From Escherichia phage PBECO4, in the sequence record KC295538: a DNA stretch of 64,000 nt. One strand, written 5' to 3'. Below, piece after piece: positions 5,721 to 25,705 of the stretch; within the stretch, counting starts at the first letter, position 1; every line of letters begins with the position of its first letter. The translations under genes and the position numbers were made by a program. The notes under the pieces were generated by a model. That model did no database searches. It had not been told where the DNA came from and saw nothing but the letters and a program-made list of their open reading frames with translations.

Positions 5721-5923
5721 TTTGAATCTCCTAACTTTGTGGGCCGTCGCACCATTGCCGCCCTACGAGATACATTATTGCAGTACTGATATACTTTGTC
5801 AATACTTTTTTATTAATAGTTTTAGTTCCACCAGCAGATAGTTACTCACCGTTATTAACTATATATTTTGGATACACTTATGCACCCTGTGGGCTGATTT
5901 GTTTCTATGCGTATATAATAGCA

Positions 5924-5951
5924 AAGGGACTGACCGGAGTCAATCCCTTTT
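5924..5951. terminator. TTGACT-containing hairpin flanked by A-run and T-run (bidirectional terminator-like, copy 1 of 12)
   Basis: aaagggactgaccggagtcaatcccttttt; same element recurs 11 more times. Confidence 0.5.
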
Positions 5952-5964
5952 TTATTCTTTTTTG

Positions 5965-6165
5965 TTAGATGATTCTCCAATCATCAACGATCATGGTAAG
6001 ATACCGAACCAGTGATTCGAGTGATTCGTGTTCTCGATAGTCTGCCGCACCGCCAGCGGTACAAGTACAGCCGATTAAGCCGTTTTGCAATTCCTTAATC
6101 TGTACATCGATAAGGTTGGCTTTAGCTTCTTTCAGTACTTCAACCAGGGCGAGAGCGATAGACAT
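5965..6165 (-). CDS. hypothetical protein
   Basis: Track ORF; promoter+hairpin at 6166..6255. Confidence 0.6.
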   Translation of the reverse strand: MSIALALVEVLKEAKANLIDVQIKELQNGLIGCTCTAGGAADYREHESLESLVRYLTMIVDDWRII

Positions 6166-6255
6166 AATGTTTTACTCCAAACTATTGGCGGGAGAACTAT
6201 TCCCCCGCTCTATGTAAAACATTATACATTACTGGTTAGTACTGTCAAATAGTTT
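6166..6255 (-). promoter_or_regulatory. sigma70-like promoter + 5' UTR hairpin
   Basis: tgtcaa/attata on + strand (TTGACA/TATAAT on minus), hairpin gcgggagaactattcccccgc. Confidence 0.6.
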
Positions 6256-6513
6256 TTATGAAATATCTTCGATGTAGTCGGCCCATTTCATTTTTTCAGT
6301 ACTGTCAATGGCTACCGGATTATTTGGATCAAACCATTCACCATTACCGCAATACATACCAACGGCTACGGTTTTATAGCCATCCTGGGCCGTACACCAC
6401 GACATTGCACGATAGATATGGCCTTTAACTGGTTGCAGTACTGGTAACGTTTTATGGTCTTCTACGTAGGCCATAGCTTGAGGATTTACCCGATATTGTG
6501 TGAATTGTTCCAT
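6256..6513 (-). CDS. hypothetical protein
   Basis: Track ORF; TTGACA-N17-TGTAAT upstream (6514..6589). Confidence 0.6.
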   Translation of the reverse strand: MEQFTQYRVNPQAMAYVEDHKTLPVLQPVKGHIYRAMSWCTAQDGYKTVAVGMYCGNGEWFDPNNPVAIDSTEKMKWADYIEDIS

Positions 6514-6589
6514 TATGTTTCCCCTTGTAGTTAGTAAAGTTATTACATCAGTACTATCAAGCTATGTCAATAGTACTGAAATAAAACTT

Positions 6590-6814
6590 TTAGATTAGAT
6601 TATTGAGGCCGTCAATGGTAGACTCACTTTCTTCTTTCTCCCATTGTCGGTAGTACTTCCATGCTTCATGATAGGTGGCGATTAGTTCATCTTTTTGATC
6701 CTGGTTACATGCCAGTACTGAATCACGGTGAGCGGTGTTATAGATAGAATCGAATGATTTCTTCTCTTCTGCCAGGTTAGCTACTTCCCGCATCAGTTCA
6801 TCAAAGTTAGCCAT
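6590..6814 (-). CDS. hypothetical protein
   Basis: Track ORF; own promoter+hairpin. Confidence 0.6.
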   Translation of the reverse strand: MANFDELMREVANLAEEKKSFDSIYNTAHRDSVLACNQDQKDELIATYHEAWKYYRQWEKEESESTIDGLNNLI

Positions 6815-6881
6815 TTTATTACTCCTTTTAGTGGGGGAGGATATCTCCCCCTATGCAAAACATTATACTTTGTTTTAGTTA
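6815..6881 (-). promoter_or_regulatory. sigma70-like promoter + 5' UTR hairpin
   Basis: hairpin gggggaggatatctccccc; atgcaaaacattatac motif. Confidence 0.55.
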
Positions 6882-7145
6882 TTATGCAAGTACTTTTTTC
6901 ATATAAACATTAAATTCTACACCGCCGTAACCTTCCACGATGATATGTTTTGCGTTATCACGTTTGCACATAGTGAAACCATCGTTTACGTGTTTTGCAT
7001 TTTCCAGGGCGACATCACCGATAGCGGCACATACAGCACTAATAACGATATTCCGCAAAGTACTGGTATCATTAGCGGTCATAGTAGTTTGCATGATTAC
7101 GTTGTCGTATACGTGTGCATTGATAGTGATTTCGATAGTGTTCAT
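6882..7145 (-). CDS. hypothetical protein
   Basis: Track ORF. Confidence 0.6.
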   Translation of the reverse strand: MNTIEITINAHVYDNVIMQTTMTANDTSTLRNIVISAVCAAIGDVALENAKHVNDGFTMCKRDNAKHIIVEGYGGVEFNVYMKKVLA

Positions 7146-7231
7146 GGTGTATCTCCTGGACTGGCGGGAGAACTATTCCCCCGCTCTATGTAAAACATTA
7201 TACGTTAATCTAACTACAATGCAAGTACTTT
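7146..7231 (-). promoter_or_regulatory. sigma70-like promoter + 5' UTR hairpin
   Basis: hairpin gcgggagaactattcccccgc; atgtaaaacattatac. Confidence 0.55.
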
Positions 7232-7423
7232 TTAAATTTTATTTCCGATATAGTCTGGCCTGTTCTTTTCGGTCATACGCTTAAGCATTTTTTGCATATG
7301 GCTTATTGCTTGTAGTGTATCCTCTTCCAGGGATGAATCGAGATAATCAGGATCATTCTTCACCTTGCAATGATTATGATAGCGTAGTACTGCCAGTACT
7401 TTTTTAACTTCTTCAACTGTCAT
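7232..7423 (-). CDS. hypothetical protein
   Basis: Track ORF; overlaps upstream gene by 4 nt. Confidence 0.55.
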   Translation of the reverse strand: MTVEEVKKVLAVLRYHNHCKVKNDPDYLDSSLEEDTLQAISHMQKMLKRMTEKNRPDYIGNKI

Positions 7424-7692
7424 AATAAGTACTCCACTTCGTTAGCTTTCAGGTTAGTATCAATCATCAATGGTTTTTTGTAGTTCACAAAACGATTAGT
7501 TTTTTCGATAGCGAATCCCATATAATCCAGCTTACTAACAGTACATTCATTCTTAAAAACTTCTTTCGCTGCATCGATGGCTGATTGCATGGATAACCGA
7601 CCATCTAAATTAATGTTTCCAAATGATCCACCAGCAGAAGTAGGATTACCGTTCATATCTTTAATGATCATAGTAGCGGAGTAGCTGGACAT
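7420..7692 (-). CDS. hypothetical protein
   Basis: Track ORF; promoter+hairpin at 7693..7776. Confidence 0.6.
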   Translation of the reverse strand: MSSYSATMIIKDMNGNPTSAGGSFGNINLDGRLSMQSAIDAAKEVFKNECTVSKLDYMGFAIEKTNRFVNYKKPLMIDTNLKANEVEYLL

Positions 7693-7776
7693 AATTTTGT
7701 TTCCTTTTAGTATCGGGGAGAACTATTCTCCCCTTGATGTAAACTATTATACAGTACTAATATACTTTGTCAATAC
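7693..7776 (-). promoter_or_regulatory. consensus sigma70-like promoter + 5' UTR hairpin
   Basis: Minus strand TTGACA (7773..7768), 16-nt spacer ending AGTACTG, TATAAT (7751..7746); hairpin ggggagaa-cta-ttctcccc 7714..7733. Confidence 0.65.
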
Positions 7777-7998
7777 TTAATTACGTTTAAAATGATATGT
7801 GCCTTTATCATCCTGTACGCCCCATACTGATTTACCATCAACACCAGTGAAGCCGGATTGTAATTCAATATGGAAACCATTATTATCAACTACAAAAACT
7901 TTTTTATTTTCATCCCGATAACATTGATATTCTGAATCAACATTAAAGGCCGCATCATTCAGAAGATTGGAAGCGTAAATGCAAGTCATTGTAGTCAT
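7777..7998 (-). CDS. hypothetical protein
   Basis: Track ORF 7777..8073 trimmed to ATG 7998 (MTTMTCIY..) with AAGGA SD; extension is translated promoter/hairpin. Confidence 0.6.
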   Translation of the reverse strand: MTTMTCIYASNLLNDAAFNVDSEYQCYRDENKKVFVVDNNGFHIELQSGFTGVDGKSVWGVQDDKGTYHFKRN

Positions 7999-8179
7999 GA
8001 TTTTATTCCTTATTGCCAGGGAGAACCGTTTCCCCCTCTCGATATAAAACATTATACTTGATTCTAAGTACAATGCAAGTACTTTTTTAAAATAGTTTTC
8101 AGTACTGAATACTTATATAATAGATACACTTCCGCACCCTATGGGTCAGTGAGTTATCTCTCAATGAATATATAATAGC

Positions 8180-8210
8180 AAAGGGACTGACCGGAGTCAA
8201 TCCCTTTTTT
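8180..8210. terminator. TTGACT-containing hairpin element (copy 2)
   Basis: aagggactgaccggagtcaatccctttttt. Confidence 0.5.
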
Positions 8211-8218
8211 AATCTTTT

Positions 8219-8803
8219 TTATCGTGTTATAGTTACGGCTTTTACATCACGCTTTTTATAGTACTGATTCCAGATATTGCGGGTTAAACCGTAATCAAGT
8301 ACTTTAATAAGGCCGTTGCGATCCTGGCCGATATTCTGTTTTCTGATATCTCTTATCGTTAGTGTTGACAGTGTATCATCAACGTGTTGTAGTGCATCAG
8401 CAAAGCGGTGCTGGCGTTCAATAGCATTACGTTTAATATTGTACTTTAATTCGTTGCACGCGTTAACGTGCTTCACACTGCCTTTACTTGCAGTACTCAA
8501 CCGATCCATAACAATAAACATATTATCAGGATCGCTTAAATGCATATGCACTTTAGCGAAGAACTGTTTCAACTGAGGGCGGTCATAGTCTAAAAAATTC
8601 CATACCCTACATTCTGTTTCATTTTGTTCTACACCCGCATCACAATTCGCGACCTTGATCACTAACCGATCATTTAAAGCGAAAACTATACGGGAAGAAC
8701 CCGCACCGATGATCTCCAGACCAGCTAACCGACAAGCTGAAAGGATCTCTTTGTTGGTTTCCATTGCTGACAGGGTACGGATGAATTTAGTATAATTACG
8801 CAT
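8219..8803 (-). CDS. protein kinase-like protein (Hanks-type fold)
   Basis: IGAGSSRIVF glycine loop, VIKV lysine, IRDIRKQNIG catalytic-loop-like, LDYG (DFG-like); start trimmed to ATG 8803 with AAGGAG. Confidence 0.55.
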   Translation of the reverse strand: MRNYTKFIRTLSAMETNKEILSACRLAGLEIIGAGSSRIVFALNDRLVIKVANCDAGVEQNETECRVWNFLDYDRPQLKQFFAKVHMHLSDPDNMFIVMDRLSTASKGSVKHVNACNELKYNIKRNAIERQHRFADALQHVDDTLSTLTIRDIRKQNIGQDRNGLIKVLDYGLTRNIWNQYYKKRDVKAVTITR

Positions 8804-8834
8804 TGCATGTTCTCCTTGAGTTAATGAAACTATC

Positions 8835-9134
8835 TTACAGTACTTTACTATCAATGGCAACTACTTTTTTTACACTAACCGCGTGAATCACTTCCTTAGT
8901 GTTTTTAGTACTGAATACTTTCGCCGTGCCTTGTTCTACTGCAATACGATAACGACCGTTAACATCAACCATATTAATAAAGTCCGGTGTACTAAACCGA
9001 GTAGTTTTACATTTCAGTACTGTTAACAGTTCCACCAGCGATGTGGTTTCTTTGATACGTTTTTCTAAAGTAATCATTTTGTTTTCCCCGTGTTGGTATG
9101 TACATATAGTACTAAAACATTTGAGTACTGTCAA
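8835..9134 (-). CDS. hypothetical protein
   Basis: Track ORF. Confidence 0.55.
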   Translation of the reverse strand: MTVLKCFSTICTYQHGENKMITLEKRIKETTSLVELLTVLKCKTTRFSTPDFINMVDVNGRYRIAVEQGTAKVFSTKNTKEVIHAVSVKKVVAIDSKVL

Positions 9135-9385
9135 CGTGATATTAGTTTTATTTTCTTATTATATTGTTGATGTTCATAAAGGTTTATCTTTCCTGTGTTC
9201 TCTATTACTATTCTGTTGTTAGTGTCTACATCGATTACACGCAGTTTTCCGTTGCTTAACTTCCTTGGTAATAGGTTACCATTAATAAACTCATTAGCAA
9301 GCTGTACGGCCTTTGTGATGATTCTCTGAGGTGCTTTATAGTGTACCCGCAAGATATTATCTTTAGATAGTTGTACCTTAATCAT
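9131..9385 (-). CDS. hypothetical protein
   Basis: Track ORF; 4-nt overlap with downstream gene. Confidence 0.55.
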   Translation of the reverse strand: MIKVQLSKDNILRVHYKAPQRIITKAVQLANEFINGNLLPRKLSNGKLRVIDVDTNNRIVIENTGKINLYEHQQYNKKIKLISR

Positions 9386-9400
9386 TTTAGTTTATCCTAT

Positions 9401-9425
9401 AAAAAAGGCGGGAACTGATCCCGCC
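9401..9425 (-). terminator. rho-independent terminator (minus strand)
   Basis: ggcgggaactgatcccgcc hairpin preceded on + by AAAAAA (U-run on minus), just 3' of gene 9448..9843. Confidence 0.6.
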
Positions 9426-9447
9426 GTGTTGTTAGTACTGCAAGTTA

Positions 9448-9843
9448 TTAGATAACCTGTCGGCGTTTACTATATACTGTTACACGATTACCCTTACGGT
9501 CGTGTCGGATCTCTTTCTGGTTGCGTACCAGTTCACTTGGACGCTTCAGGTTTGCCAGGTGATCCGCGTGAGTCCAAGCGGTATGGTTTGTCTGTACTTT
9601 GATATCAGAATCAGCGATAAACTCATCTTGTGCATCAAGTATTGACGCCAGTAAATCCGCTCGTTTTAGTTCTGCTGCTGTTAGTACTGGCTCCGGTGAA
9701 TTCACAATATCAGAGATCTCTTTGAACTGTACGGCCCAGCGTTGACCTTTCGGTGCATCTTTGCCCATGTCTTTAAATGTTTCGCCTTCCTCGCGTGCAA
9801 CAATACGGGCAGCTTCACGGGTAGCGTAGAATTTAGTAATCAT
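9448..9843 (-). CDS. hypothetical protein, paralog of 22341..22607
   Basis: Shared FATRE.ARI.AR..G.TFKDMG and DRKGNRVTVY segments. Confidence 0.6.
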   Translation of the reverse strand: MITKFYATREAARIVAREEGETFKDMGKDAPKGQRWAVQFKEISDIVNSPEPVLTAAELKRADLLASILDAQDEFIADSDIKVQTNHTAWTHADHLANLKRPSELVRNQKEIRHDRKGNRVTVYSKRRQVI

Positions 9844-9938
9844 GGTATACATCCTATTAGTTGAGTTAGTACTACAAGTTAGAGTCTATTATAAAGTACT
9901 ATCTGGGCAATGTCAAATAGTACTTTAAATGGATTCTA

Positions 9939-10262
9939 TTACATGTCTTTCTTACGTTTTACATCGTGGTAGCGAACTGTTATTTCTTTGTTGATCTCTT
10001 CCTCGATGCGGTGAATAACTGTTTCTTTCGGGTTGAAACCTATAACGGTTTCTTTAATGATCTCCAAGCCCGTGTATTCTCCTTGTGTACCGTAACCGTA
10101 AGTAAAGGTTTCATGTCCCAGGTCTTCCCAGCGGTCGCCAATTAACGCGGACACGTAGCAAGAGTGGTAAGTGTTACCGTTCCGATCAGTCCAGCGATTA
10201 ACTTTAATGTCAAAGGAGGTTACAATTTTCAGTTCTACTTTCTGGGTAAGGATCATAGCCAT
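9939..10262 (-). CDS. hypothetical protein, paralog of 16709..17032
   Basis: Shared RWTD..GNTYHSC.VS, FTYGY, C-terminal DVKRKKD. Confidence 0.6.
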   Translation of the reverse strand: MAMILTQKVELKIVTSFDIKVNRWTDRNGNTYHSCYVSALIGDRWEDLGHETFTYGYGTQGEYTGLEIIKETVIGFNPKETVIHRIEEEINKEITVRYHDVKRKKDM

Positions 10263-10352
10263 TTTTATTTCTCTCTCTCTTTGTTAGGAGGGGAACCGTT
10301 TCCCCTCGCTTGATGTAAACTATTATACAGTACTAAGATACTTTGTCAATAC
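10263..10352 (-). promoter_or_regulatory. sigma70-like promoter + 5' UTR hairpin
   Basis: tgtcaa/attata on +; hairpin gaggggaaccgtttcccctc. Confidence 0.6.
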
Positions 10353-10535
10353 TTATTTTTTGGAAAGTTTACGCATTAATTCTACGCTTTCTTGTGAACG
10401 TTTTGCTACCTGGCAATCTGTATGGGTAGTAAACATTTTTGTATAGTCTGACGGTTTGCCACCGAACCGAGCGGCACGCTCACGGGCACTTGGAACTAAT
10501 ACGATTTCTTTCTTACAGATAGTGCACTTAGCCAT
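10353..10535 (-). CDS. small Cys-containing protein (possible zinc ribbon)
   Basis: CTICKK...HTDC in 60 aa; own promoter+hairpin. Confidence 0.5.
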   Translation of the reverse strand: MAKCTICKKEIVLVPSARERAARFGGKPSDYTKMFTTHTDCQVAKRSQESVELMRKLSKK

Positions 10536-10620
10536 TTTTATTTCTCTCTCTTTGTTAGGAGGGGAACCATTCCCCCCTTGATGTAAACTATTATACAGTA
10601 CTAAGATACTTTGTCAATAC
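10536..10620 (-). promoter_or_regulatory. sigma70-like promoter + 5' UTR hairpin
   Basis: Near-identical copy of unit 10263..10352. Confidence 0.6.
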
Positions 10621-10896
10621 TTAATTATTGTAAATGCAGTGAATAGTGATAAAGTTTTTACGACCGTAAACCTGCAAATCAATATCAATGTAGTGCTTAT
10701 CAAGTACATCCTCGACGCTTAACGCGGTGTCGTGAATATCTTCGTAGAATTGAGGATCTACAATCTTGCTTAAGTCATCCGGCGTTAACTTATCGTTAAG
10801 CCATTGAACCGCCTGGATATCTGCTTCACGTTTCCAGTCTTCCAGGTTAGTAGTCAGTACTTGCTCGATTTCGTTAGCTGTCAGTAGAATCCGCAT
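10621..10896 (-). CDS. hypothetical protein
   Basis: Track ORF. Confidence 0.55.
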   Translation of the reverse strand: MRILLTANEIEQVLTTNLEDWKREADIQAVQWLNDKLTPDDLSKIVDPQFYEDIHDTALSVEDVLDKHYIDIDLQVYGRKNFITIHCIYNN

Positions 10897-11093
10897 TTTT
10901 ATGTTTCCTTATCAGTAGTTGATGTAAGTATTATACTCGTTTACTTTCTATTGTCAATCTTTTTTTATCAGGGGAGTTTTTCGTATGTCTTACTCCTGGA
11001 CTACTTAACGGGGTTACTTGTTTTGTTCCCCGTCCTGATGTAAAACATTATACTTGATTCTAAGTACAATGCAAGTACTTTTTAAAAATAGTT

Positions 11094-11258
11094 TTACTTA
11101 CTCATATTAACAGGCTTGAACGGTGGCAATGTAAGATCATGCGGGGTTAAACTATCATGCTTTGCCCACATACCGGAATCCCTACGGAATAATACCTTAT
11201 TGTTTTTTATACGATAAAAGTTACCATTATCAGTGTTTTTGTACCATATCATTTTCAT
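11094..11258 (-). CDS. hypothetical small protein (54 aa)
   Basis: Own translation MKMIWYKNTDNGNF..; GGAG SD; promoter motif upstream. Confidence 0.4.
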   Translation of the reverse strand: MKMIWYKNTDNGNFYRIKNNKVLFRRDSGMWAKHDSLTPHDLTLPPFKPVNMSK

Positions 11259-11398
11259 TTACTCCTGGTTATGTCGTTATTAAACATTATACGGGGTTAT
11301 AGATAGTTTTCAAGTATATTTCAGTACTAGCCACCAGCATATAATAGATACATTTATGCACCCTATGGGCTGATTTTTTTCTATGCGTATATAATAGC

Positions 11399-11430
11399 AA
11401 AGGGACTGACCGGAGTCAATCCCTTTTTTA
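11399..11430. terminator. TTGACT-containing hairpin element (copy 3)
   Basis: agggactgaccggagtcaatccctttttt. Confidence 0.5.
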
Positions 11431-11437
11431 ATTCTTT

Positions 11438-11587
11438 TTAAACTTCTTTCGGGTTGCGATATGTGATAGCGTTCGGGTACATTTGTTTAATGTTATTCCA
11501 TGCCTGGTTAACATTGTAACCACTTGAGCGAATCAGTTGGTTACTACCGACACCTTGAAACACTACTTCGAATAAGAATTCTTTCAT
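11438..11587 (-). CDS. hypothetical small protein (49 aa)
   Basis: Own translation MKEFLFEVVFQG..; ATGA overlap with upstream ORF. Confidence 0.4.
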   Translation of the reverse strand: MKEFLFEVVFQGVGSNQLIRSSGYNVNQAWNNIKQMYPNAITYRNPKEV

Positions 11588-11757
11588 GCTTTCACCTCGC
11601 TATCTGCTTTACCTTTACGCCAGGACATTACTAATTGTTCGCGTTGCCATAAATCGAGTGATACAAAAAGTTTTGCGGTATCACTTTTAGGATACTCGCC
11701 AGTAGTACCTAACCGATAAAACAGATCTTTCAGTACTGATAATTCTACTTGAATCAT
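11584..11757 (-). CDS. hypothetical small protein (57 aa)
   Basis: Own translation MIQVELSVLKDLFYRLG..; translationally coupled. Confidence 0.4.
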   Translation of the reverse strand: MIQVELSVLKDLFYRLGTTGEYPKSDTAKLFVSLDLWQREQLVMSWRKGKADSEVKA

Positions 11758-11863
11758 TTTATTACTCCTGATTGATTTAATACTTCTACTATTGCATGAA
11801 TGATCATAAGTACAGCTAAAACAATAATCATCGGATTCATTTGCATAAGCTGTACTCCTTCTA

Positions 11864-12076
11864 TTAATCTTTCAGCCAATGATCTTGAATGAATTTTTCA
11901 CAGAATCCCTGTTTCATGGATTCCAACAGGCGTTCGCGGTGAGCGTTTGCGAATTGCTCAGTACTATGCGTTACGCCAGGCTGATAACGTGATACCCCAT
12001 CCGGTCCGATGTATTGTACATCCCACGGTTTTTCGTTAGTATCAGACCATTTACGAACGATTAGTTGACCTTGCAT
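11864..12076 (-). CDS. hypothetical protein
   Basis: Track ORF; promoter+hairpin 12077..12159. Confidence 0.6.
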   Translation of the reverse strand: MQGQLIVRKWSDTNEKPWDVQYIGPDGVSRYQPGVTHSTEQFANAHRERLLESMKQGFCEKFIQDHWLKD

Positions 12077-12159
12077 TTTTCTTTCCTCTCAGTGGGGAGA
12101 ATCATTTCTCCCCTTCATGTAACTTATTATACAGTACTAGATTATCTTGTCAATAGTTT
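12077..12159 (-). promoter_or_regulatory. sigma70-like promoter + 5' UTR hairpin
   Basis: ggggagaatcatttctcccc hairpin; tgtcaa/attata. Confidence 0.6.
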
Positions 12160-12483
12160 TTATTCACCTTGTTTGAATTTAGTTTTCTCCATTGATTCCA
12201 TGATTGCAACCAATACGCCGTGGATCTCGCTTAACGCGGAATCACTGAAAGCATTAATGAATAGTCGATCATTCTCGCGAATATTTTTAATGTACTTTTC
12301 AGCAGTAGTTGCGAATTCATTCAACGGTAGATCAAATGCTTTATCCCATGATGGATGGCGTAATTGTAACAGTACTGGATTATCACGATCACCAGGGGAA
12401 AACGTACCAGTGATGAAACATACGCCCGGAATACTTTCGAACTGGCAACGGACTTCCTTTGTGATAGTAGTATGAATGTACAT
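12160..12483 (-). CDS. hypothetical protein
   Basis: Track ORF. Confidence 0.55.
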   Translation of the reverse strand: MYIHTTITKEVRCQFESIPGVCFITGTFSPGDRDNPVLLQLRHPSWDKAFDLPLNEFATTAEKYIKNIRENDRLFINAFSDSALSEIHGVLVAIMESMEKTKFKQGE

Positions 12484-12510
12484 TTATTGTTATCCTCTAT
12501 TAAATTAATA

Positions 12511-12705: not shown

Positions 12706-12780
12706 TTCCTCTTAGTAGGGGAAGATGTTTCCCCTTGATGTAAGTACTATAACACTACTGGATAGTACTGTCAATACTTT
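12706..12780 (-). promoter_or_regulatory. promoter + 5' UTR hairpin
   Basis: hairpin aggggaagatgtttcccct; tgtcaa -35. Confidence 0.5.
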
Positions 12781-15049: not shown

Positions 15050-15052
15050 CAT

Positions 15053-17915: not shown

Positions 17916-17936
17916 AGTGATTCAGTACTTTAATTG

Positions 17937-18650: not shown

Positions 18651-18667
18651 AGTGATTCAGTACTATA

Positions 18668-18967
18668 TTATAAACAGTTAATTACTCCGGTGTGCGTTAC
18701 TTTCTCAGTATCCATAACCGTGACCGATCCACGCTTAGTACTTACATCGTAATAAATTGTCGTGCTACCTTTTTCGTCTTCTTCATGGAACGGGCCGCTT
18801 TTAAATGCTTCTGGCTGGATCTCTAAATCCTTTAAAACAATCTCGCCAGTACTTTCATCTGTCATCGCAACAGTGCACTGAATGAATTTTTCACTACTTA
18901 CATCTAACGACGCATTAACAGCGAAAGAGGAAACAGATAAAGCCAGGGCGATGATTGCAATTTTCAT
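18668..18967 (-). CDS. small secreted protein (signal peptide)
   Basis: MKIAIIALALSVSSFAVNA N-terminus. Confidence 0.6.
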   Translation of the reverse strand: MKIAIIALALSVSSFAVNASLDVSSEKFIQCTVAMTDESTGEIVLKDLEIQPEAFKSGPFHEEDEKGSTTIYYDVSTKRGSVTVMDTEKVTHTGVINCL

Positions 18968-19051
18968 TTGATTATCCTTAGTTACCAGGGGGAACCGCTC
19001 CCCCGTGCGATGTAAAATATTGTACAGTACTAAAAACTAATTGCAAGTACT
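18968..19051 (-). promoter_or_regulatory. sigma70-like promoter + 5' UTR hairpin
   Basis: agggggaaccgctccccct hairpin. Confidence 0.55.
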
Positions 19052-19288
19052 TTATGATTTTTTATAAAACATTTCGGCAGTAATATTTTTACCCGTTGGT
19101 TGTACTTTATCCAGAATTTTTTGATGCCCTGGCCGTCCAAATGAATATGATCCGTAAACCGTAAACCAGTAGTTACCCTCAGTGTTTACATGTACAGCAC
19201 AATAGGGAACGCCCCGCGATTCATCACCAATAAAGTGTGATACCGTTCCCGTTACATTAGCAGACGTTGATTTGATTTGTTCAAGCAT
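19052..19288 (-). CDS. hypothetical protein
   Basis: Track ORF. Confidence 0.55.
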   Translation of the reverse strand: MLEQIKSTSANVTGTVSHFIGDESRGVPYCAVHVNTEGNYWFTVYGSYSFGRPGHQKILDKVQPTGKNITAEMFYKKS

Positions 19289-19397
19289 TTTCTTATTCCT
19301 TAGTTACCAGGGGGAACCGCTCCCCCTATGCAAAACATTATACGCGTTTAAAAACTAATAGCAAGTATTTTAATAAAAAGTATTTGAAAAATAATTG

Positions 19398-19426
19398 TTG
19401 ACAACTGCATCCAGTACTGGCATAAT
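19398..19426 (+). promoter_or_regulatory. + strand sigma70-like promoter (TTGACA-N17-CATAAT) driving a short noncoding transcript
   Basis: ttgaca 19398..19403, cataat 19421..19426; downstream box ctaacccaccgggtgc; no + strand ORF. Confidence 0.45.
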
Positions 19427-19500
19427 TACTACATCAAGACGAAACAGTCACTAACCCACCGGGTGCCGAGATCCGTCTATTAAATGATTCAGTACTTAAC

Positions 19501-19524
19501 AATAAAGGGGATCAATCGATCCCC
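19501..19524 (-). terminator. hairpin terminator (minus strand; may also stop the + strand transcript)
   Basis: ggggatcaatcgatcccc with flanking A/T runs immediately 3' of gene 19531..19752. Confidence 0.5.
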
Positions 19525-19530
19525 TATGTA

Positions 19531-19752
19531 TTACTTAGTAAGGTATAAACAGAAGTCACCTTTATTTGCTACGCCGCCAGTGTAACGCGATGAATAGTTA
19601 GAAACGTCCTGGACTTCTGCTATTACCAGTGTATCATCATTCAATTCGTCGCAGAAGCAAACGGCTGGATCTTTTACGCCGATCTTGTCGGCATGTTCCC
19701 GCATAGATTTAACCAGTGCTTCCAGTTGAGAAAGAGTAGTGATATTAGCCAT
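19531..19752 (-). CDS. hypothetical protein
   Basis: Track ORF trimmed to ATG 19752 (MANITTLSQ..). Confidence 0.55.
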   Translation of the reverse strand: MANITTLSQLEALVKSMREHADKIGVKDPAVCFCDELNDDTLVIAEVQDVSNYSSRYTGGVANKGDFCLYLTK

Positions 19753-19836
19753 TGTATTTTCCTCATTACCAGGGAGAACCATTTCTCCCCTCTATGTAAA
19801 CTATTATACAGTACTGAAAACTAATTGCAAGTACTT
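19753..19836 (-). promoter_or_regulatory. sigma70-like promoter + 5' UTR hairpin
   Basis: gggagaaccatttctcccc hairpin. Confidence 0.55.
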
Positions 19837-20025
19837 TTAATTAAATTCCATAAAATCATTCTCAACGTGCACAACAATTTGATTGTTTTTAAAGTCCGCA
19901 GCGAACTCGATGCAATCATAAACCGCTTTTTGTGTTACAATGCTATGAGTACCAATCGGATTAATAGGGGATTGAATTGTTTCAATCTCGTTCCCTTGCT
20001 CATTAACAATTAAAATATTAAACAT
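19837..20025 (-). CDS. hypothetical protein
   Basis: Track ORF. Confidence 0.5.
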   Translation of the reverse strand: MFNILIVNEQGNEIETIQSPINPIGTHSIVTQKAVYDCIEFAADFKNNQIVVHVENDFMEFN

Positions 20026-20081
20026 CGCTGTTACTCCTGGGTAGTGTTAACTCGATATAAAGTATTATACGCCTTTATTGC

Positions 20082-20324
20082 TTAGTGTCCAGTACTTTTT
20101 AAAACATATTCATAAACACTACGCACATCATTGATCATCGCCTGGCGGTTAGCAGGTAACGCACCAGGATCGCCACTATCCCAGGCATTGATAAAACTCC
20201 CCAAATCATGAAAGATTTTATTCTGTAAGCCGATTAACTGCAATTCTTTTTCTTCAAGCTCTTTGATACGGTCAATTAAAAGACTCATTAGATAATCCTC
20301 AGTACTTAATTGTAAGATCCGCAA
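20082..20324 (-). CDS. hypothetical protein
   Basis: Track ORF. Confidence 0.5.
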   Translation of the reverse strand: MRILQLSTEDYLMSLLIDRIKELEEKELQLIGLQNKIFHDLGSFINAWDSGDPGALPANRQAMINDVRSVYEYVLKSTGH

Positions 20325-20632
20325 CGGTTACAATAGTGCCCGTCTTCCTCGTCATCGTCAACGAATTGACCGACGAAATTATCTACTTTCTCTTTGAGAT
20401 TCTGATAATTGTTTTCAACTTCCTTTAGACGTTCCTGGTAGTATTCCAGGGCTTGCACATACGCCGCCTCAGCCGTTTTCGCTCTTAAGGCTAAATTCAT
20501 GCCACGCGTTTCATCGTACATCCAAAAGCCATCGGTGCACTCACTGATTGACAATGATTTGGTTAACACTTTATAGTCAATTACTTTGCTCATTAGATAA
20601 TCCTCAGTAAAGGCGGGAACCACACCCGCCAT
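20306..20632 (-). CDS. hypothetical protein
   Basis: Track ORF; C-terminal CNRC. Confidence 0.5.
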   Translation of the reverse strand: MAGVVPAFTEDYLMSKVIDYKVLTKSLSISECTDGFWMYDETRGMNLALRAKTAEAAYVQALEYYQERLKEVENNYQNLKEKVDNFVGQFVDDDEEDGHYCNRCGSYN

Positions 20633-20649
20633 TGATTCAGTACTGAATG

Positions 20650-20889
20650 TTACATTCCAACCATTGCAGCACGGATCGCCGTAGTGCTATACTTGAATCC
20701 GTCCGGTGTTGTAGTAGTACCGTTGGCTTTTAATCTGCGGTACATACATTGGGCCGCAATATCTTTAGTTTTACATTGTGCGATGCAACTTTGAGCAAGC
20801 CGATATAATGACTCACCGTTATTAATCCACAATGAAACATTCCAATGAGTTTTGTTTTTGTGCCCGTTGTAAGTTTTAGTAGTAGCCAT
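20650..20889 (-). CDS. hypothetical protein, paralog of 22698..22937
   Basis: Shared GHKNKTHWNVSLWINN..LYRLAQ and C-terminal TPDGFKYSTTAIRAAMVGM. Confidence 0.6.
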   Translation of the reverse strand: MATTKTYNGHKNKTHWNVSLWINNGESLYRLAQSCIAQCKTKDIAAQCMYRRLKANGTTTTPDGFKYSTTAIRAAMVGM

Positions 20890-20985
20890 TTTTAAATCCT
20901 CGTTTAATTGAGCGGGAGAACCATTCCCCCGCCTCGATATAAAGTATTATACGCTTTTAAACTTAGTTTGCAAGTACTTTTTAAA
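20890..20985 (-). promoter_or_regulatory. sigma70-like promoter + 5' UTR hairpin
   Basis: gcgggagaaccattcccccgc hairpin. Confidence 0.55.
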
Positions 20986-21597
20986 TTAATATGCGATTGA
21001 TTCTACTACGTCATCAATAACATTGAATTGATACTCGTTACCCTCGATCAGTGCCGTGATGTTCTCAGTAGTGAATTGATCCTCATATGCATTCTCTAAA
21101 TCACGGTACAACTTGCGGGACAATTCACGAATAGTATCAGTGAGTAGTTCCTCAAGCTCATTAACTAACGTTTCTTGTTTTGCGGTTAAATCAGTGTAAG
21201 CCGATTCAATGTACCCGCTTACAGTATTCTCATGCGAGTAGTGGGAGTGCGAACGCTTTACACTCATCGCCAAATCATCTTCATTCAGCAAGTGACGGAT
21301 TGAGCGATACTTAGTTAATGCTCTTACCTTGCGTAAAAACTTCACTGCGTCAACGTGGTCAGTACTGATTGATGCACCGTCACCCTGGGACCAAAAACCA
21401 CTGAATTGTATTTCAGCTTCATTAATGCCATATTCCGGTAGTACTGTTTCTTTATAGTATTCAATTTCACTTTCAGAAAAATAATTGTCGTTTGAGTTTT
21501 TTTCACGTTCCCGAACCAGTTCGATAGCTGACGTTTGTTGTTCTGCGTTCAATTCAGAAAAATCCATAACGAAAGTAGTAGTAGTGATAGTTTTCAT
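20986..21597 (-). CDS. hypothetical acidic protein (203 aa)
   Basis: Track ORF. Confidence 0.6.
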   Translation of the reverse strand: MKTITTTTFVMDFSELNAEQQTSAIELVREREKNSNDNYFSESEIEYYKETVLPEYGINEAEIQFSGFWSQGDGASISTDHVDAVKFLRKVRALTKYRSIRHLLNEDDLAMSVKRSHSHYSHENTVSGYIESAYTDLTAKQETLVNELEELLTDTIRELSRKLYRDLENAYEDQFTTENITALIEGNEYQFNVIDDVVESIAY

Positions 21598-21819
21598 TTT
21601 GTAACCCTCATTCAGTAGTTGATGTAAGTATTATACGCTTTTAAAAACATTTGTCAAACTATTTTATCAGGGGAGTTTTTCGTGTGCCTTACTCCTGGGC
21701 TACTTAACGGGAAGTTACTTATTTCGTTCCCCGTCCTGATGTAAAACATTATACGCCTTTAAACATAGTTTGCAAGTACTTTTTAAAAATAGTTTTCAGT
21801 ACTGAATATTAAAAAAGTA

Positions 21820-21848
21820 TTGACAGCATTATCAAGTACTGGCATAAT
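21820..21848 (+). promoter_or_regulatory. + strand sigma70-like promoter (TTGACA-N17-CATAAT) driving a short noncoding transcript
   Basis: ttgaca 21820..21825, cataat 21843..21848; downstream ctaacccaccgggtgc box then atagatacactcccgcaccctatgggct box. Confidence 0.45.
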
Positions 21849-22022
21849 ATACCACATGACAACAGCTAACCCACCGGGTGCACAATTGTAACTATACTAA
21901 ACTAATTTTTCTATAGATACACTCCCGCACCCTATGGGCTACGGCTTATCTGCCAATGAATACATTATGCCAGTACTGACAAAATAAGTCAATACCGGCA
22001 ATTGTAAAGATTTGTAAACTAC

Positions 22023-22253
22023 TTATACTGCAATCGCGTCCAGGCTATAATAATAATAAGTGCCGTATTGGTGTACTTTATTACCTTTTATTTCAGTACT
22101 GAATGAATCCGAACGATTTGCATATGATGTTAATTTAAAGTACTTTGATTTGCTGATACGTTGCCATACACCACAGATCCGCTGTAAGTAAGTAGTTTTA
22201 TTCGTGGTAGTATCTTTTACGGTTTTAACTTCAGTCATATACATATTAGTCAT
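22023..22253 (-). CDS. hypothetical protein
   Basis: Track ORF. Confidence 0.55.
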   Translation of the reverse strand: MTNMYMTEVKTVKDTTTNKTTYLQRICGVWQRISKSKYFKLTSYANRSDSFSTEIKGNKVHQYGTYYYYSLDAIAV

Positions 22254-22340
22254 TTTTATTACTCCAGGTTATAGGCGGGAAGAGTTCCCGCTCTCGATGT
22301 AAAACATTATACGCCTTTAAACATAGTTTGCAAGTACTTT
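22254..22340 (-). promoter_or_regulatory. sigma70-like promoter + 5' UTR hairpin
   Basis: gcgggaagagttcccgc hairpin. Confidence 0.55.
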
Positions 22341-22607
22341 TTATTCAAGTACTGCAATCTTTTTAGTACGGTACACGGTCACGCGGTTGCCCTTTCGGTC
22401 GAGCTTTATTTCTACCACTCGACGCGATACACTATCGGGACTTTTTAAGGCCGCTAACCAGTACTGTAATGATCTGGCTGTACTACGCTTTACAATGGCC
22501 CAACGTTTACCACGTTCCGATTGTACGCCCATATCTTTAAACGTTGCCCCGTCCTGGCGTGCGGCGATCCGAGCTTGTTCACGCGTCGCAAAATACTTAA
22601 TATTCAT
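22341..22607 (-). CDS. hypothetical protein, paralog of 9448..9843
   Basis: Trimmed to ATG 22607 (MNIKYFATREQARIAARQDGATFKDMG..). Confidence 0.6.
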   Translation of the reverse strand: MNIKYFATREQARIAARQDGATFKDMGVQSERGKRWAIVKRSTARSLQYWLAALKSPDSVSRRVVEIKLDRKGNRVTVYRTKKIAVLE

Positions 22608-22697
22608 GCTGTTGCCCTTATCGTTGGTGTATGAATAAAACACTATTATAAAGTACTATCGCAAAAAATGATAGTACTTTAAATAAATTCTATTCTA

Positions 22698-22937
22698 TTA
22701 CATTCCAACCATCGCCGCACGGATCGCAGTAGTGCTATACTTAAAGCCGTCCGGTGTTTTATCTTGTCCAGTCTGTTCTAAAAATAGCATCATATGACGG
22801 GCCGCATCATTACGATTAGTATTGGCGGCAATAAAGTCCTGGGCCAACCGATACAATCCCTCATCGTTATTAATCCAAAGGCTTACATTCCAATGAGTTT
22901 TGTTTTTGTGACCTAAGAACATTTTTGATTTAGCCAT
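22698..22937 (-). CDS. hypothetical protein, paralog of 20650..20889
   Basis: Trimmed to ATG 22937 (MAKSKMFLGHKNKTHWN..). Confidence 0.6.
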   Translation of the reverse strand: MAKSKMFLGHKNKTHWNVSLWINNDEGLYRLAQDFIAANTNRNDAARHMMLFLEQTGQDKTPDGFKYSTTAIRAAMVGM

Positions 22938-23019
22938 TTTTTTAATCCTCTTATATAGTGGGGAACTATTCCCCACCTGATGTAAAGTATTATACGCTTT
23001 TAAATTTAGTTTGCAAGTA
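22938..23019 (-). promoter_or_regulatory. sigma70-like promoter + 5' UTR hairpin
   Basis: gtggggaactattccccac hairpin. Confidence 0.55.
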
Positions 23020-23253
23020 CTATTTTTTCAGTACTGGTAAACCTTTGATCTCACCTGGCTGTACTTCCTCAAAGGCGACCGCCATCATACGGCTATCATC
23101 TTCCTTACATTCTTCCATCGCATCACAAAAATGATTAATAACGTCCGGTGCAACGTCAACCACATCAAACAAGCCAACCTCAGTGCAACGGCTTAAAGCG
23201 TTTAATAGGTCAGTCAGTGCAACGGATTGAGAAACAGTTAAAATAGTACTCAT
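23020..23253 (-). CDS. hypothetical acidic protein
   Basis: Track ORF. Confidence 0.55.
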   Translation of the reverse strand: MSTILTVSQSVALTDLLNALSRCTEVGLFDVVDVAPDVINHFCDAMEECKEDDSRMMAVAFEEVQPGEIKGLPVLKK

Positions 23254-23347
23254 ACAATTAATCTCTTAATTATAGTGGGGAACTATTCCCCACCTGATGT
23301 AAAACATTATACGCTTTTAAACTTAGTTTGCAAGTACTTTATTAAAC
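23254..23347 (-). promoter_or_regulatory. sigma70-like promoter + 5' UTR hairpin
   Basis: Same hairpin as 22938..23019. Confidence 0.55.
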
Positions 23348-23710
23348 TTATTTGTAAATTTTGCCACTGTCAGCCCATACCAGGAAACGAGGCATATTAT
23401 CCCATGCATCTTGTTTTAAATTTAAACCGTGCAATTCCTCAGTAGTTGCCATCCCTGGTACTGGCTTACTACACACCGCGAAATTTTCGCCCATATACTG
23501 ATAAACCATCGTCAAATCATTTGAGATCATCTTATGGATCATCGCATCAAGCATCACGGTAGCGGCGTATTGTTCACGCTTAAGCGGCAGCATTTTAATC
23601 AGTTCGCGGTATGCGTCAATGTGAGTTTTAACCGTTGCCGCCGGAAGATCTTTCATCTCGTCGCGGAAGTTAACCAGGTTAGCAATAATTTTGGTGATTT
23701 GAGTTGCCAT
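23348..23710 (-). CDS. hypothetical protein
   Basis: Track ORF trimmed to ATG 23710 (MATQITKIIA..). Confidence 0.6.
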   Translation of the reverse strand: MATQITKIIANLVNFRDEMKDLPAATVKTHIDAYRELIKMLPLKREQYAATVMLDAMIHKMISNDLTMVYQYMGENFAVCSKPVPGMATTEELHGLNLKQDAWDNMPRFLVWADSGKIYK

Positions 23711-23800
23711 CGTTTTAATCTCTCTTAAAGTGTAGCGGGAACACTTCCCGCTCTCGATGTAAAACATTATACGCTTTTATCAGTACGGTGCAAGTACTTT
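23711..23800 (-). promoter_or_regulatory. sigma70-like promoter + 5' UTR hairpin (last unit before noncoding hub)
   Basis: gcgggaacacttcccgc hairpin. Confidence 0.55.
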
Positions 23801-23825
23801 CTACAAATACTTTTAAAATAGTTTT

Positions 23826-23917
23826 CTTTCTATATAGGAGTACTATTATTCAGTACTGAATCAATCCAGGGGAACTATCTTTCTATATAGGAGTACTATT
23901 ATTCAGTACTGAATCAA
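23826..23917. repeat. 39-bp direct repeat x2
   Basis: ctttctatataggagtactattattcagtactgaatcaa at 23826..23864 and 23879..23917. Confidence 0.7.
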
Positions 23918-24069
23918 CCAAATCACTACTACACCCCATAAAACGGCCTCAGACGCATTCTAACGCATTAATACACCTAAGCTATACATTTGCACCACTC
24001 CCAACAATCCAGGGCGTTACGGGCCGTTTAAACGCGTTAAATTATTTTCAATTATTTTGTTTTTAGGTA

Positions 24070-24097
24070 TTGACTTGATCCTGAAAAAGCGTATAAT
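24070..24097 (+). promoter_or_regulatory. + strand promoter (TTGACT-N16-TATAAT)
   Basis: ttgact 24070..24075, tataat 24092..24097; downstream gggtgcgg ... ccgcaccc long-range inverted repeat. Confidence 0.45.
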
Positions 24098-24284
24098 TAC
24101 TACATAGACGCGAGAAAGCGGAAACCCCAGAGGGTGCGGAATTACGCCCAAAATTCAAGATATAAAAAAAGGATACACTCCCGCACCCTAGCAGGTAAAC
24201 GCACTTTCTCAGTACTGAATTATAGTACCATAGTCCGGCCCAGGATGGCAAGCAAATTAATTAAAACTTTTTTCATCCAGGGTA

Positions 24285-24312
24285 TTGCTTTATTTTTCCA
24301 GTACTGTATAAT
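24285..24312 (+). promoter_or_regulatory. + strand promoter with TTGCTTTA box upstream of TATAAT (resembles a T4 MotA-box middle promoter)
   Basis: tattgctttat 24283..24293, tataat 24307..24312; downstream cccaccgggtgc box. Confidence 0.35.
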
Positions 24313-24533
24313 AGTTCCATCAAGTCGAGAAAGACTCAAGCCCACCGGGTGCATAGTTACGCCCAAAATTCAGTACTGAAAAAATTTTTAAAAATATCCG
24401 TCCAGGCCGTTGACATTGCCCCCAGTTTATAAGATAATGATTCCAGATTCAGAAAAATCTAACTCCAGATACTGCGGGGAAACTATCCCCACGCGGTAGG
24501 GGAACTATTGGAAAAAACAAAATAAAATTTTGA

Positions 24534-24680
24534 TTTAGCCGTCTATACTTCCAGACGTGTAACCATCTAGCCGTTTAGCCGTCCAAACGTCTAGCCATCC
24601 AGCCATCCAGAAATCTAGCCGTTTAGCCGTCTAGATGGATAGCCATCTTTACTTCCAGACTTCTGGAGGGCTAGACATAT
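24534..24680. repeat. iteron-like cluster of ~8 short direct repeats (TAGCCGT/TAGCCAT) flanked by tacttccagac repeats
   Basis: ctagccgtttagccgtc, ctagccatccagccatccag, ctagccgtttagccgtctag; tacttccagac at ~24546 and ~24651. Confidence 0.6.
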
Positions 24681-25705
24681 CTACGTCCAAAATCCACCCA
24701 GGGTAACTACGCCCAAAATCCGTCAGTACTATACCATAGATCTATCTTTTGAAAGGGAGTATTCAGTACTGCCACAATAGCCCTCACTATGTTACCCTAG
24801 GAGGATGAAGACTATCATGTAGTACTGAATACTGTTAGAGGGAATCCACCAGCTTGTGCTGGTGGCATAATGCTTTAGATTAAAATCAGTACTGACACCA
24901 TTCTGTTAATATCAGTACTGTTATTACGATTTTCATATGAGGTTCAAAAAGATGTACCACCACAGGAGGAACTATCTTTTCTGTACTGTCTCACGACAGG
25001 AGGTAGAGTAAATGAATTGTTCGCAGCAACTCATCACCCTATGTAGAACATTATACAGTACTGAATCATAATGTCAATAGCTTTCTTTCATTATTCAGTA
25101 CTGATATTCTTGAGAACTACCCGACTACAAACATCATTATATCCCACAAATCATAAACGTCCCAACGTAAATTTCAACTTTCGAAGATCCAACTTTTATT
25201 TCATAGGTACTCCAAAATTTTTAGGATCGAGATTTAGGATGGAGTACTAACCAACTTTTTGCTGGAGCCTCAAGGGGTAATGGAATTTTACCCCGAAGGG
25301 TAAAGGGGTAATTGAAATTAAGGTGAAAGTAATAATTCAGTACTAATCATTGCGTGATTACTTTTGATTACATTTGATGTAATTTGAAAAATGGAAAAGG
25401 AGCTTGGAAACTACAAAGTACGGCAGACTTCCTCTGCCTACTTAGTGGCATATCAGTACTGAATCCTTCCCGTGCATTCTTGAGCATTCTTGTCTATACT
25501 AATCAGTACTGAATCATATATAATCATTCTGTGATTCTACGGTGCTCATATAAATGTTTATATATGATTACTTATGACTACCTATGATTACGGGGTTTAG
25601 CCTGGGGAGAATCCTAGTGATCGCATTTGTCCAGGCTGAATTTTAACAATTCGCCTGTACATAAAGGTTGTTCACTAGGAGCTTCCCCTGTCTACTTGTG
25701 TTTAA

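Follow-up and report, generated by a model that had tools for sequence, protein, structure and literature searches.

The window analysed here, a 64,000-nucleotide stretch of Escherichia phage PBECO4 (sequence record KC295538), is assigned by BLAST against phage records to Asteriusvirus, the 121Q/PBECO4-like jumbo phages of E. coli with genomes of ~350-380 kb. Our analysis concerns the palindromic hexamer AGTACT, which is spread over this DNA and recurs in the core of its early promoters. In two relatives the chromosome carries a long direct terminal repeat, annotated at 21,525 bp in vB_Ec-M-J and measuring 20,993 bp in fEgEco12, where PhageTerm and restriction digests confirm it (PMC13070987). 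The repeat boundaries in the window are set by homology to the first bases and the annotated repeat end of vB_Ec-M-J, and to fEgEco12, and are not proven for the PBECO4 isolate itself; they place the physical left genome end at ~25442 and the inner repeat boundary at ~4466/4467. Hence, the range to which the initial annotation had assigned the hexamer (5760-25520) is, in essence, the terminal repeat as seen from the minus strand. The repeat opens with a non-coding leader of ~1.6 kb, followed by ~60 small genes, every one of which points inward, and is densely supplied with strong sigma-70-type early promoters. The hexamer itself is not confined to this range: its field extends from 4598 to the end of the window, and no site at all lies in 1-4597 (Table 1).

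Table 1. Coordinates of the features discussed in the text (positions in the window; aa, amino acids).
Feature	Position	Strand	Description
AGTACT-free island 2 (5 kb island)	1..4466	-	starts at the inner repeat boundary; paralogous genes of ~70 aa in an array
Equivalent of the ~21 kb direct terminal repeat	4467..25442	-	placed by homology; ~60 small early genes, minus strand throughout; ~130 AGTACT sites
AGTACT field	4598..64000		266 sites; preferred flanks tCAGTACTGa; 3-7 per kb up to the window end
Class B early promoter (example)	7746..7773	-	TTGACA-N9-AGTACT-G-TATAAT; AGTACT at 7753-7758 = -19 to -14
Double-site promoter (example)	14130..14171	-	AGTACT-A-TTGACA-N10-AGTACT-GG-CATAAT; sites at 14138 and 14160, spacing 22 bp
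Class A early promoter (example)	21748..21785	-	aaaaAGTACTTGCAA-N16-TATAAT; AGTACT at 21775-21780 extends over base 1 of the -35 hexamer
Non-coding stretch	23790..25745		begins at the first early promoter and spans the physical left end (~25442); 20 AGTACT sites
Promoter in the terminal non-coding stretch	24285..24312	+	TTGCTT-N9-AGTACT-G-TATAAT; given as ccagtactgtataat in the initial annotation
TTGACT-N17-TATTAT unit copies	5880, 8132, 11356, 13295, 14971, 21925, 24181	-	
TTGACT-N17-TATTAT unit copies	19455, 24126	+	
Terminator-like hairpin	32186..32204	+	gccAGTACtctGTACTggc plus T-rich sequence; between cassettes of RCC1-like paralogues; contains AGTACT

AGTACT is the most over-represented hexamer

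We counted 266 AGTACT sites in the window, ~12 times the 22.1 +/- 4.9 expected from dinucleotide-preserving shuffles, none of 100 of which reached this number. Under Markov models of orders 1, 2 and 3 the word ranks first among all hexamers (z = 52, 32 and 17, respectively), and no other palindromic hexamer in the window exceeds 1.8 times its expectation; with such counts, the earlier description of AGTACT as pervasive holds. A simple gene call (79% coding) places 156 of the sites (59%) inside open reading frames, at 3.1-3.9 per kb vs. ~0.35 per kb expected, and the other 110 in non-coding sequence at 4-11 per kb. The comparison of coding with intergenic DNA, proposed at the outset as a check, thus yields an excess in both. 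Non-coding and coding densities are 11.3 and 3.9 per kb at 4.6-25.7 kb, 7.0 and 3.1 per kb at 25.7-42.1 kb, and 4.1 and 3.1 per kb at 42.1-64 kb; the equivalent of the terminal repeat as a whole averages 6.2 per kb.

The flanks of the hexamer are symmetric. C precedes it at 47% of the window sites and G follows it at 43%, while G at -1 is found at only 4.5% (12 of 266). The same bias (C at -1 and G at +1 each ~45%, G at -1 5-10%) characterizes coding and non-coding sites as well as those of the phages RaK2 and CBB, introduced below. Fully flanked forms are represented by CAGTACTG with 56 sites and by TCAGTACTGA with 15. The latter had been reported about 20 times for the non-coding region at 23.8-25.7 kb; there are indeed 20 AGTACT sites in it, but only eight of them are the exact 10-mer.

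Two trivial origins can be set aside at this point. A repair-driven bias of the very-short-patch type is excluded, since words that differ from AGTACT by one mismatch are not depleted. Restriction-site avoidance in the classical sense is excluded as a general cause because AGTACT is 7-18-fold over-represented in phages of four genera; of the restriction-site option raised initially, only local avoidance survives, in the two islands described below.

AGTACT lies within the core of the early promoters

Read on the minus strand, an early unit consists of an A-tract, near-consensus -35 and -10 hexamers, the sequence gTTTTACAT, a G-rich/C-rich 5' hairpin, a Shine-Dalgarno sequence and an ATG. These units were defined without reference to AGTACT, by the pattern TATAAT-NN-TTTACAT-N6-GGGG, for which there are 27 matches vs. 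0.6 expected; 25 of the 27 lie on the minus strand, between 5334 and 23771. AGTACT is situated inside the core promoter, against the -10 or the -35 hexamer, in 23 of these 25 units, and one exception shows a decayed form, AATACTTGCT. A word in 12-fold excess and present in almost all early units is neither at chance frequency nor unconnected with promoters.

There is no single fixed position relative to the -10 hexamer; at least four placements occur. The first A of the word is found at -19/-20 (22 sites; AGTACT-G-TATAAT or AGTACT-GG-CATAAT), at -39 (10 in the scan; AAAGTACTTGCAA, sharing the first base of the -35 hexamer), at -42/-43 (three sites; AGTACT-A-TTGACA) and at -29/-30 (four sites; TTGAC-AGTACT). 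The strings in which AGTACTG directly precedes TATAAT are present as described previously, namely AGTACTGTATAAT in 13 copies (12 minus, one plus) and AGTACTGGCATAAT in seven. That AGTACT usually abuts the -10 hexamer is, however, too broad a statement: only 22 sites (~8%) do so, and they belong to one promoter class, while 17 more minus-strand copies (5376-23798) are fused to the -35 hexamer as AGTACTTGCA. Some promoters possess two sites 20-23 bp apart, a spacing that forms the sole peak in the distribution of site-to-site distances; paired sites are also carried by a 53-bp direct repeat in the terminal non-coding stretch (23839-23857 and 23892-23910). The architecture extends to relatives. 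In GAP32, annotated promoters (11183-11211 and 11575-11603) have AGTACT directly ahead of the -35 hexamer and, with one base in between, ahead of the -10 hexamer, and CBB contains promoters of the same build (TTGACAGTACT, AAAAAGTACTTGACA). Altogether, promoters account for only ~15% of all AGTACT sites.

One explanation for these placements could be a promoter element read by RNA polymerase itself, be it an extended -10, a spacer or UP-like element, or an element for a phage RpoD-like sigma factor. Besides the presence of the word in the early units, this would suit the seven AGTACTGG-CATAAT promoters, whose TG at -15/-14 resembles an extended -10 that offsets a weaker hexamer, and the near-identical class A promoter and leader that occur once in unrelated ~146 kb E. 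coli myoviruses. However, the placements are too many for a contacted element, TG is located at -14/-13 in the commonest class (the 13 AGTACTG-TATAAT promoters), and the 59% of copies inside genes are evenly spread without a link to downstream starts. Furthermore, published promoter analyses of the clade, which describe RpoD-like, TGAAACG-type and ATAAATA-type (T4-late-like) promoters, leave AGTACT unmentioned. The extended-promoter option of the initial annotation therefore captures the position of the word in the core of the early units, but neither its shifting placement nor its mostly intragenic occurrence, and we regard a polymerase-read element as improbable. The varied positions fit an operator acting by occlusion, and AGTACT is a two-fold symmetric site that overlaps core promoter elements, as the operator of a dimeric repressor would be.

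Several observations accompany the early promoters. All of them (5334-23771; e.g. 21700-21753, minus strand) continue into a conserved leader, TATAAT-gt-TTTACAT, and from there into a G-rich/C-rich hairpin (e.g. gagggggaaacggttctccctc) and a Shine-Dalgarno sequence; the hairpin might stabilise the 5' end as a stem-loop or act as a regulatory RNA element. The class A promoter together with its leader (AGTACTTGCAA...TATAATGTTTTACAT; window 21690-21800) is found once each in the above-mentioned myoviruses, which are of the Phapecoctavirus and Justusliebigvirus types (OM386658, OP778610, MZ501063, NC_052657 and others), at 82-96% identity over 50-110 nt, which suggests either transfer or convergence. 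A second repeated unit is devoid of AGTACT. It consists of a promoter TTGACT-N17-TATTAT followed by cattgagagataactcac...CCCATAGGGTGCGG, with nine copies of the 14-mer (at most three mismatches) vs. 1.2 expected, and resembles a gene family for small non-coding RNAs, albeit one with no Rfam or transfer RNA (tRNA) match.

Intragenic copies are selected at the DNA level

Intragenic AGTACT sites are distributed over the three reading frames as 70, 30 and 56. When the proteins are held fixed and the codon usage of the phage itself is applied, they exceed expectation 3.4, 7.4 and 5.5 times, respectively. Of the 137 Ser-Thr dipeptides, 70 are written AGT-ACT, and the dipeptides encoded by the word are themselves in excess (ST 137 vs. 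84 expected, VL 144 vs. 92), whereas TS and LV are not. The frame-wise excess together with that of ST and VL indicates that selection at the DNA level has moulded synonymous choice as well as protein sequence. Intragenic sites are uniform along the length of the genes, and in the packed operons at 42-64 kb their distance to the next start codon is that of random positions. In an alignment with BF17 that covers 13.3 kb at 85.7% identity, 28 of the 39 aligned sites (72%) are intact vs. 48.5% of all hexamers, with 11 losses and seven gains; as judged from this alignment, selection on AGTACT is ongoing, and losses are made good by gains.

An artefact of composition, codon usage or repeats can be rejected on the basis of the shuffles, the Markov models of orders 1-3, the per-frame codon-aware expectation, the even spread along non-paralogous genes, and the conservation combined with turnover. 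A motif acting at the RNA level, for instance a ribonuclease site, is unlikely, because the promoter copies lie upstream of the transcripts and the flank preferences are symmetric on the coding strand.

Distribution among phages and hosts

In the close relative OR844650, 249.7 kb of collapsed genome contain 531 AGTACT sites (2.13 per kb) vs. 70.5 expected, a 7.5-fold excess, and the longest gap is at most 2.1 kb. Three phages of other host genera show the same tendency: Klebsiella phage RaK2 with 119 sites vs. 12 expected (50 kb), Cronobacter phage GAP32 with 253 vs. 13.7 (50 kb; by DNA pattern search), and Pectobacterium phage CBB with 57 vs. 5.2 (20 kb). Pseudomonas phage PA5oct has two sites in 30 kb of terminal repeat, where no other palindrome is enriched, and a 50 kb sample of E. 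coli K-12 has three vs. 4.8 expected, i.e. no excess. The density on phage DNA is thus 35-100 times that of the K-12 sample, and a chromosome of ~370 kb carries ~900 copies. Functional over-represented words as such are well known, among them Chi, uptake sequences, GATC and stoperators. What is new is a palindromic hexamer present at ~900 copies in a virulent phage, placed within its early promoters and accompanied by site-free islands and a polar sister word. No study linking AGTACT with these phages was found in the searchable literature, outside which subscription journals lie.

The occurrence of the motif in phages of four enterobacterial host genera, together with its absence from the Pseudomonas relative, would be in line with the site of a host factor, e.g. 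a decoy or recruitment site for SlmA, whose consensus GTGAGTACTCAC includes AGTACT (PMC3020112), or else with selection by host restriction. The SlmA-binding sequence requires G1, T2, a purine at 3, A4, G5 and a pyrimidine at 6 in each half (GTRAGY-RCTYAC) (PMC3020112). GTRAGYRCTYAC is not matched anywhere in the window, and the least used flank of all is G at -1, so that SlmA sites are rejected; restriction pressure, for its part, leads to avoidance and not to a 7-18-fold excess. Among the readings weighed here, we give a host factor or host restriction the least credence, as very improbable.

The density of AGTACT invites a comparison with Dam sites: there is one site per 240 bp in the window and one per 470 bp in the genome, in coding and non-coding DNA and in all frames, and the density of GATC in E. 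coli is of the same order. AGTACT might accordingly serve as an epigenetic mark, that is, as the target of a phage methyltransferase occurring about once per 250-500 bp, the methylation state of which would be legible everywhere, as that of GATC is via SeqA and MutH. Bordering the -10 and -35 hexamers, such a mark would allow early promoters to respond to methylation or replication state, and it may co-exist with a binding protein. Selection for the exact hexamer, with little enrichment of its neighbours, agrees with this model, and a Dam-family N6-adenine methyltransferase gene, a candidate of unassigned specificity, is annotated in G17/121Q and in GAP32; moreover, viral methyltransferases specific for AGTACT exist elsewhere (PMC7253447). 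Yet the Dam family is too widespread (1240 phage records) for its presence to correlate with the motif, and is hence uninformative. The DNA of fEgEco12 is cut as predicted by ten ordinary restriction enzymes, ScaI not being among them, and bulk modification is not evident (PMC13070987). Furthermore, a methyltransferase that recognizes a hexamer has no need of the conserved flank preference (C/G favoured, G/C avoided), and the island rich in AGTACA is left unexplained. We therefore consider an epigenetic mark rather unlikely.

Two AGTACT-free islands and the variant AGTACA

The first AGTACT site of the window, at 4598, lies ~130 bp inside the repeat. In the record of G17, two stretches are empty of the word, one of 5 kb (345-350 kb of the record), which corresponds to 1-4466 of the window, and one of 7.4 kb (335-342 kb), and the 2.8 kb between them hold 17 sites. 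This two-island pattern recurs in vB_Ec-M-J and in Ecwhy_1 (77.6% identity there), i.e. in three genomes in all. Elsewhere in the ~300 kb examined no AGTACT-free island was found, the largest other gap being 2.1 kb.

The 7.4 kb island of G17 contains 39 copies of AGTACA on the coding (minus) strand, vs. 3.4 expected, and none on the other strand; in Ecwhy_1 the strand count is 36:0. The copies are spread over the frames (13, 12 and 11) and over non-paralogous genes, and they retain the usual left flank, ttCAGTACA. Of 24 sites aligned with Ecwhy_1, 12 are kept (50% against 35% for all hexamers), 12 are lost and 13 gained, and none has changed to AGTACT. Only AGTACA is oriented (39:0), as stoperators are, AGTACT being symmetric. 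The polarity is reversed in island 2, where 12 AGTACA are found, on the plus strand only (equivalent to TGTACT on the coding strand) and mostly at homologous codons of paralogues. In the array family of this island (30 members, ~70 aa), a conserved Val-Leu is written xxA-GTA-CTx in the AGTACT-rich spacer and xxT-GTA-CTx in the island. Because these codons are homologous among the paralogues, the opposite polarity rests largely on them, and we regard it as weak evidence. None of the readings put forward here accounts for the AGTACA enrichment.

As to gene content, at least 30 paralogous genes of ~70 aa stand in tandem directly after the terminal repeat (166-3883 and past the left edge of the window; 36942-45053 in segment L008 of G17). 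The genes are translationally coupled and share a conserved ...L-GT(N/D)YQ-E motif. An eight-member family flanks the 7.4 kb island on both sides, as if this island had been inserted into an older array. Pfam and PHROG searches with ten proteins of the 7.4 kb island revealed no DNA-binding or nuclease domains.

Complete local avoidance (no site in 5 kb and 7.4 kb, against a maximal gap of 2.1 kb elsewhere) resembles the avoidance of a cutter, and AGTACT may be conceived as the site of action of a phage nuclease, nickase or type II topoisomerase, which would seed recombination-dependent replication or resolve the 370 kb chromosome. The palindrome would be hit on both strands and AGTACA on one, and the segments adjacent to the repeat would have been purged to avoid double-strand cuts. 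Such an activity is consistent with the selection in the island, in all frames and with turnover, of a half-broken, strand-specific variant, with the start of the islands at most ~130 bp from the repeat boundary, and with selection for the exact hexamer. By our own inference, A^GTAC^T also has the 4-base stagger of type IIA topoisomerase cleavage. Against it, a genome with ~900 cut sites would be at risk, the constant positions within early promoters are not explained, reports of nicks in these phages were not found in the literature, and no such enzyme has been identified; we deem this reading unlikely, and more so than an epigenetic mark. A 'restriction enzyme' annotated in CRJP21 (window 50306-50686) was rejected: it matches nothing in Pfam or PDB and nothing informative among the PHROGs, and the mean pLDDT (predicted local distance difference test) of its structure model is 40.

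A phage DNA-reading protein as the preferred interpretation

What is more demanding is to name the agent that reads the word. We tentatively prefer, ahead of all other readings and still short of conviction, a phage-specific DNA-reading protein of two-fold symmetry, for which AGTACT would be an operator at early promoters and a tag on the phage chromosome. The starting points are direct observations: the excess, the selection at the DNA level, the fixed promoter placements, the distribution over the clade and the islands. AGTACT, at its best in the form tCAGTACTGa, would be a recognition word at the DNA level that selection keeps genome-wide in enterobacterial RaK2-like jumbo phages, and its reader a phage-encoded, dimeric, sequence-specific DNA-binding protein. 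As the word lies in the core of almost every early promoter, the protein bound there would shut out the host RNA polymerase, and AGTACT would in this way become an operator for the shut-off or the timing of early transcription. The several hundred intragenic copies would gather the reader onto the phage chromosome, as with phi29 p6 or SPO1 TF1. From the two segments just inside the repeat the word is kept away, which suggests that their genes escape the effect of the bound reader. Inferences on our part are the protein nature of the reader, its encoding by the phage, its repressive effect and the role of the intragenic copies. A phage-encoded regulator was already among the initial suggestions; it is compatible with our results and preferred here with the qualification that it must act genome-wide, although no candidate protein has turned up.

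Several points weigh against this interpretation. No DNA-binding domain was detected among the 119 window proteins by Pfam, nor by PHROG scans. CBB_511/GAP32, the only helix-turn-helix regulator annotated in the clade, was rejected as the reader: it is confined to Mimasvirus and has no homologue in Asteriusvirus or RaK2. Selection concerns the exact hexamer, with one-mismatch neighbours at 0.5-2.3 times expectation vs. 7.5 times for AGTACT, a pattern that suits a methyltransferase or a nuclease better than a transcription factor. Nor is it obvious why a repressor would require ~900 sites, of which 59% are intragenic. Finally, the one-strand, all-frame enrichment of AGTACA in the 7.4 kb island (39 vs. 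3.4; 39:0) is not explained by such a protein.

A broader model can also be conceived, in which the ~900 AGTACT copies form a system of 'genome identity': read by a phage protein or by a methylase-reader pair, they would distinguish phage from host DNA and set early timing, and AGTACA would steer a strand- or direction-specific process (priming, nicking or translocation) in the 7.4 kb segment where AGTACT is forbidden. We hold this to be possible but doubtful, somewhat less so than the epigenetic mark taken alone and more so than the DNA-reading protein that we prefer.

If a protein does read AGTACT, a virus with unmodified DNA would have a new way to mark its chromosome, by word density instead of base modification, and early-gene shut-off in RaK2-like jumbo phages would gain a handle. 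Selection on the word is strong enough to alter codon choice and dipeptide content in hundreds of genes of at least four genera. The AGTACT-free islands and the strand-specific sister word amount to a natural experiment on the action of the reader, and the density of ScaI sites offers a cheap signature for spotting this phage group in sequence data.

Comparison with known systems

The proposed DNA-reading protein finds its closest functional likeness in the viral histone-like proteins phi29 p6 and SPO1 TF1, which cover the genome of their virus and act as repressors of early promoters. By analogy, an abundant viral binder would cover the phage chromosome in preference to host DNA and at the same time silence early promoters. 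However, p6 recognizes bendability and TF1 hydroxymethyluracil DNA, not a short palindrome of exact sequence. In the present case, phage DNA would be told apart by a hexamer whose density on it is 35-100 times that in the host sample. The stoperators of mycobacteriophage L5 provide a likeness in that a short operator word is present in many copies over a phage genome, outside promoters too, and AGTACA shares their orientation bias. L5 stoperators are asymmetric 13-bp sites, mostly intergenic and ~30 per genome, at which the immunity repressor of a temperate phage blocks transcription. AGTACT, in contrast, is a palindrome of 6-10 bp with ~900 mostly intragenic copies in virulent jumbo phages.

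Dam/GATC with SeqA and MutH in E. coli is alike in being a short palindrome once per few hundred bp, in any gene frame and in some promoters, where GATC couples expression to DNA state. GATC, however, is a tetramer near chance frequency, whereas AGTACT needs a 7-18-fold excess to arrive at such a density. The first-step-transfer DNA of T5 likewise combines a long direct terminal repeat, small early genes, strong inward sigma-70 promoters and a regional ban on a hexamer beside the repeat. In T5, however, it is the repeat that lacks sites, and the word excluded from it is a target of host restriction (EcoRI); here the repeat is the zone richest in AGTACT and the ban lies just inside it. With the polar words Chi and KOPS, finally, AGTACA shares its strict strand specificity (39:0 in G17, 36:0 in Ecwhy_1), but AGTACT as a palindrome cannot be polar, and polar AGTACA is limited to 7.4 kb.

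Other features of the window

The non-coding stretch at the genome end includes, at 24536-24634, an array of ~12 copies of the octamer TAGCCGTC, for which periods of 16, 24 and 32 were also scored. The array is ~0.8 kb away from the physical genome end and could be an iteron-like or packaging-related repeat. On the other side of this end, the ~4 kb at 25700-29800 are almost without convincing open reading frames (calls of 34-108 aa, without ribosome-binding sites), contain 25 AGTACT sites and show a sharp switch of GC skew at ~26 kb; this segment may be non-coding DNA, tiny minus-strand genes or an origin. Scans of the whole window for tRNA and Rfam families gave no matches.

Of the 64 palindromic hexamers, 23 are wholly absent from the window, all of them G+C-rich (CTGCAG, GGATCC, CCATGG, GAGCTC, GTCGAC, CTCGAG, GCATGC etc.), and CAGCTG, CGATCG and GACGTC have one copy each in the 64 kb. 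These gaps may reflect restriction avoidance beyond the effect of a G+C content of 36%.

From 29859 to 42100 the plus strand encodes RCC1-like beta-propeller paralogues, ten to eleven in tandem and ~300-400 aa long, which in relatives are annotated as 'regulator of chromosome condensation'. They are parted by copies of a cassette of ~71 bp, composed of a terminator hairpin, tattaaatatagTATAAT and aaggagg. The presence of AGTACT in this hairpin, pointed out in the initial annotation, is borne out by the copy listed in Table 1; in some cassettes AGTACA or TGTACT stands in its place. Among the remaining window proteins, a DksA/TraR-type zinc-finger protein is encoded in the terminal repeat at 12781-13038 (Pfam 1.6e-10, PHROG 54), and another one has a ParE-like toxin domain (Pfam 6.1e-11). 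A role in host takeover is plausible for both.

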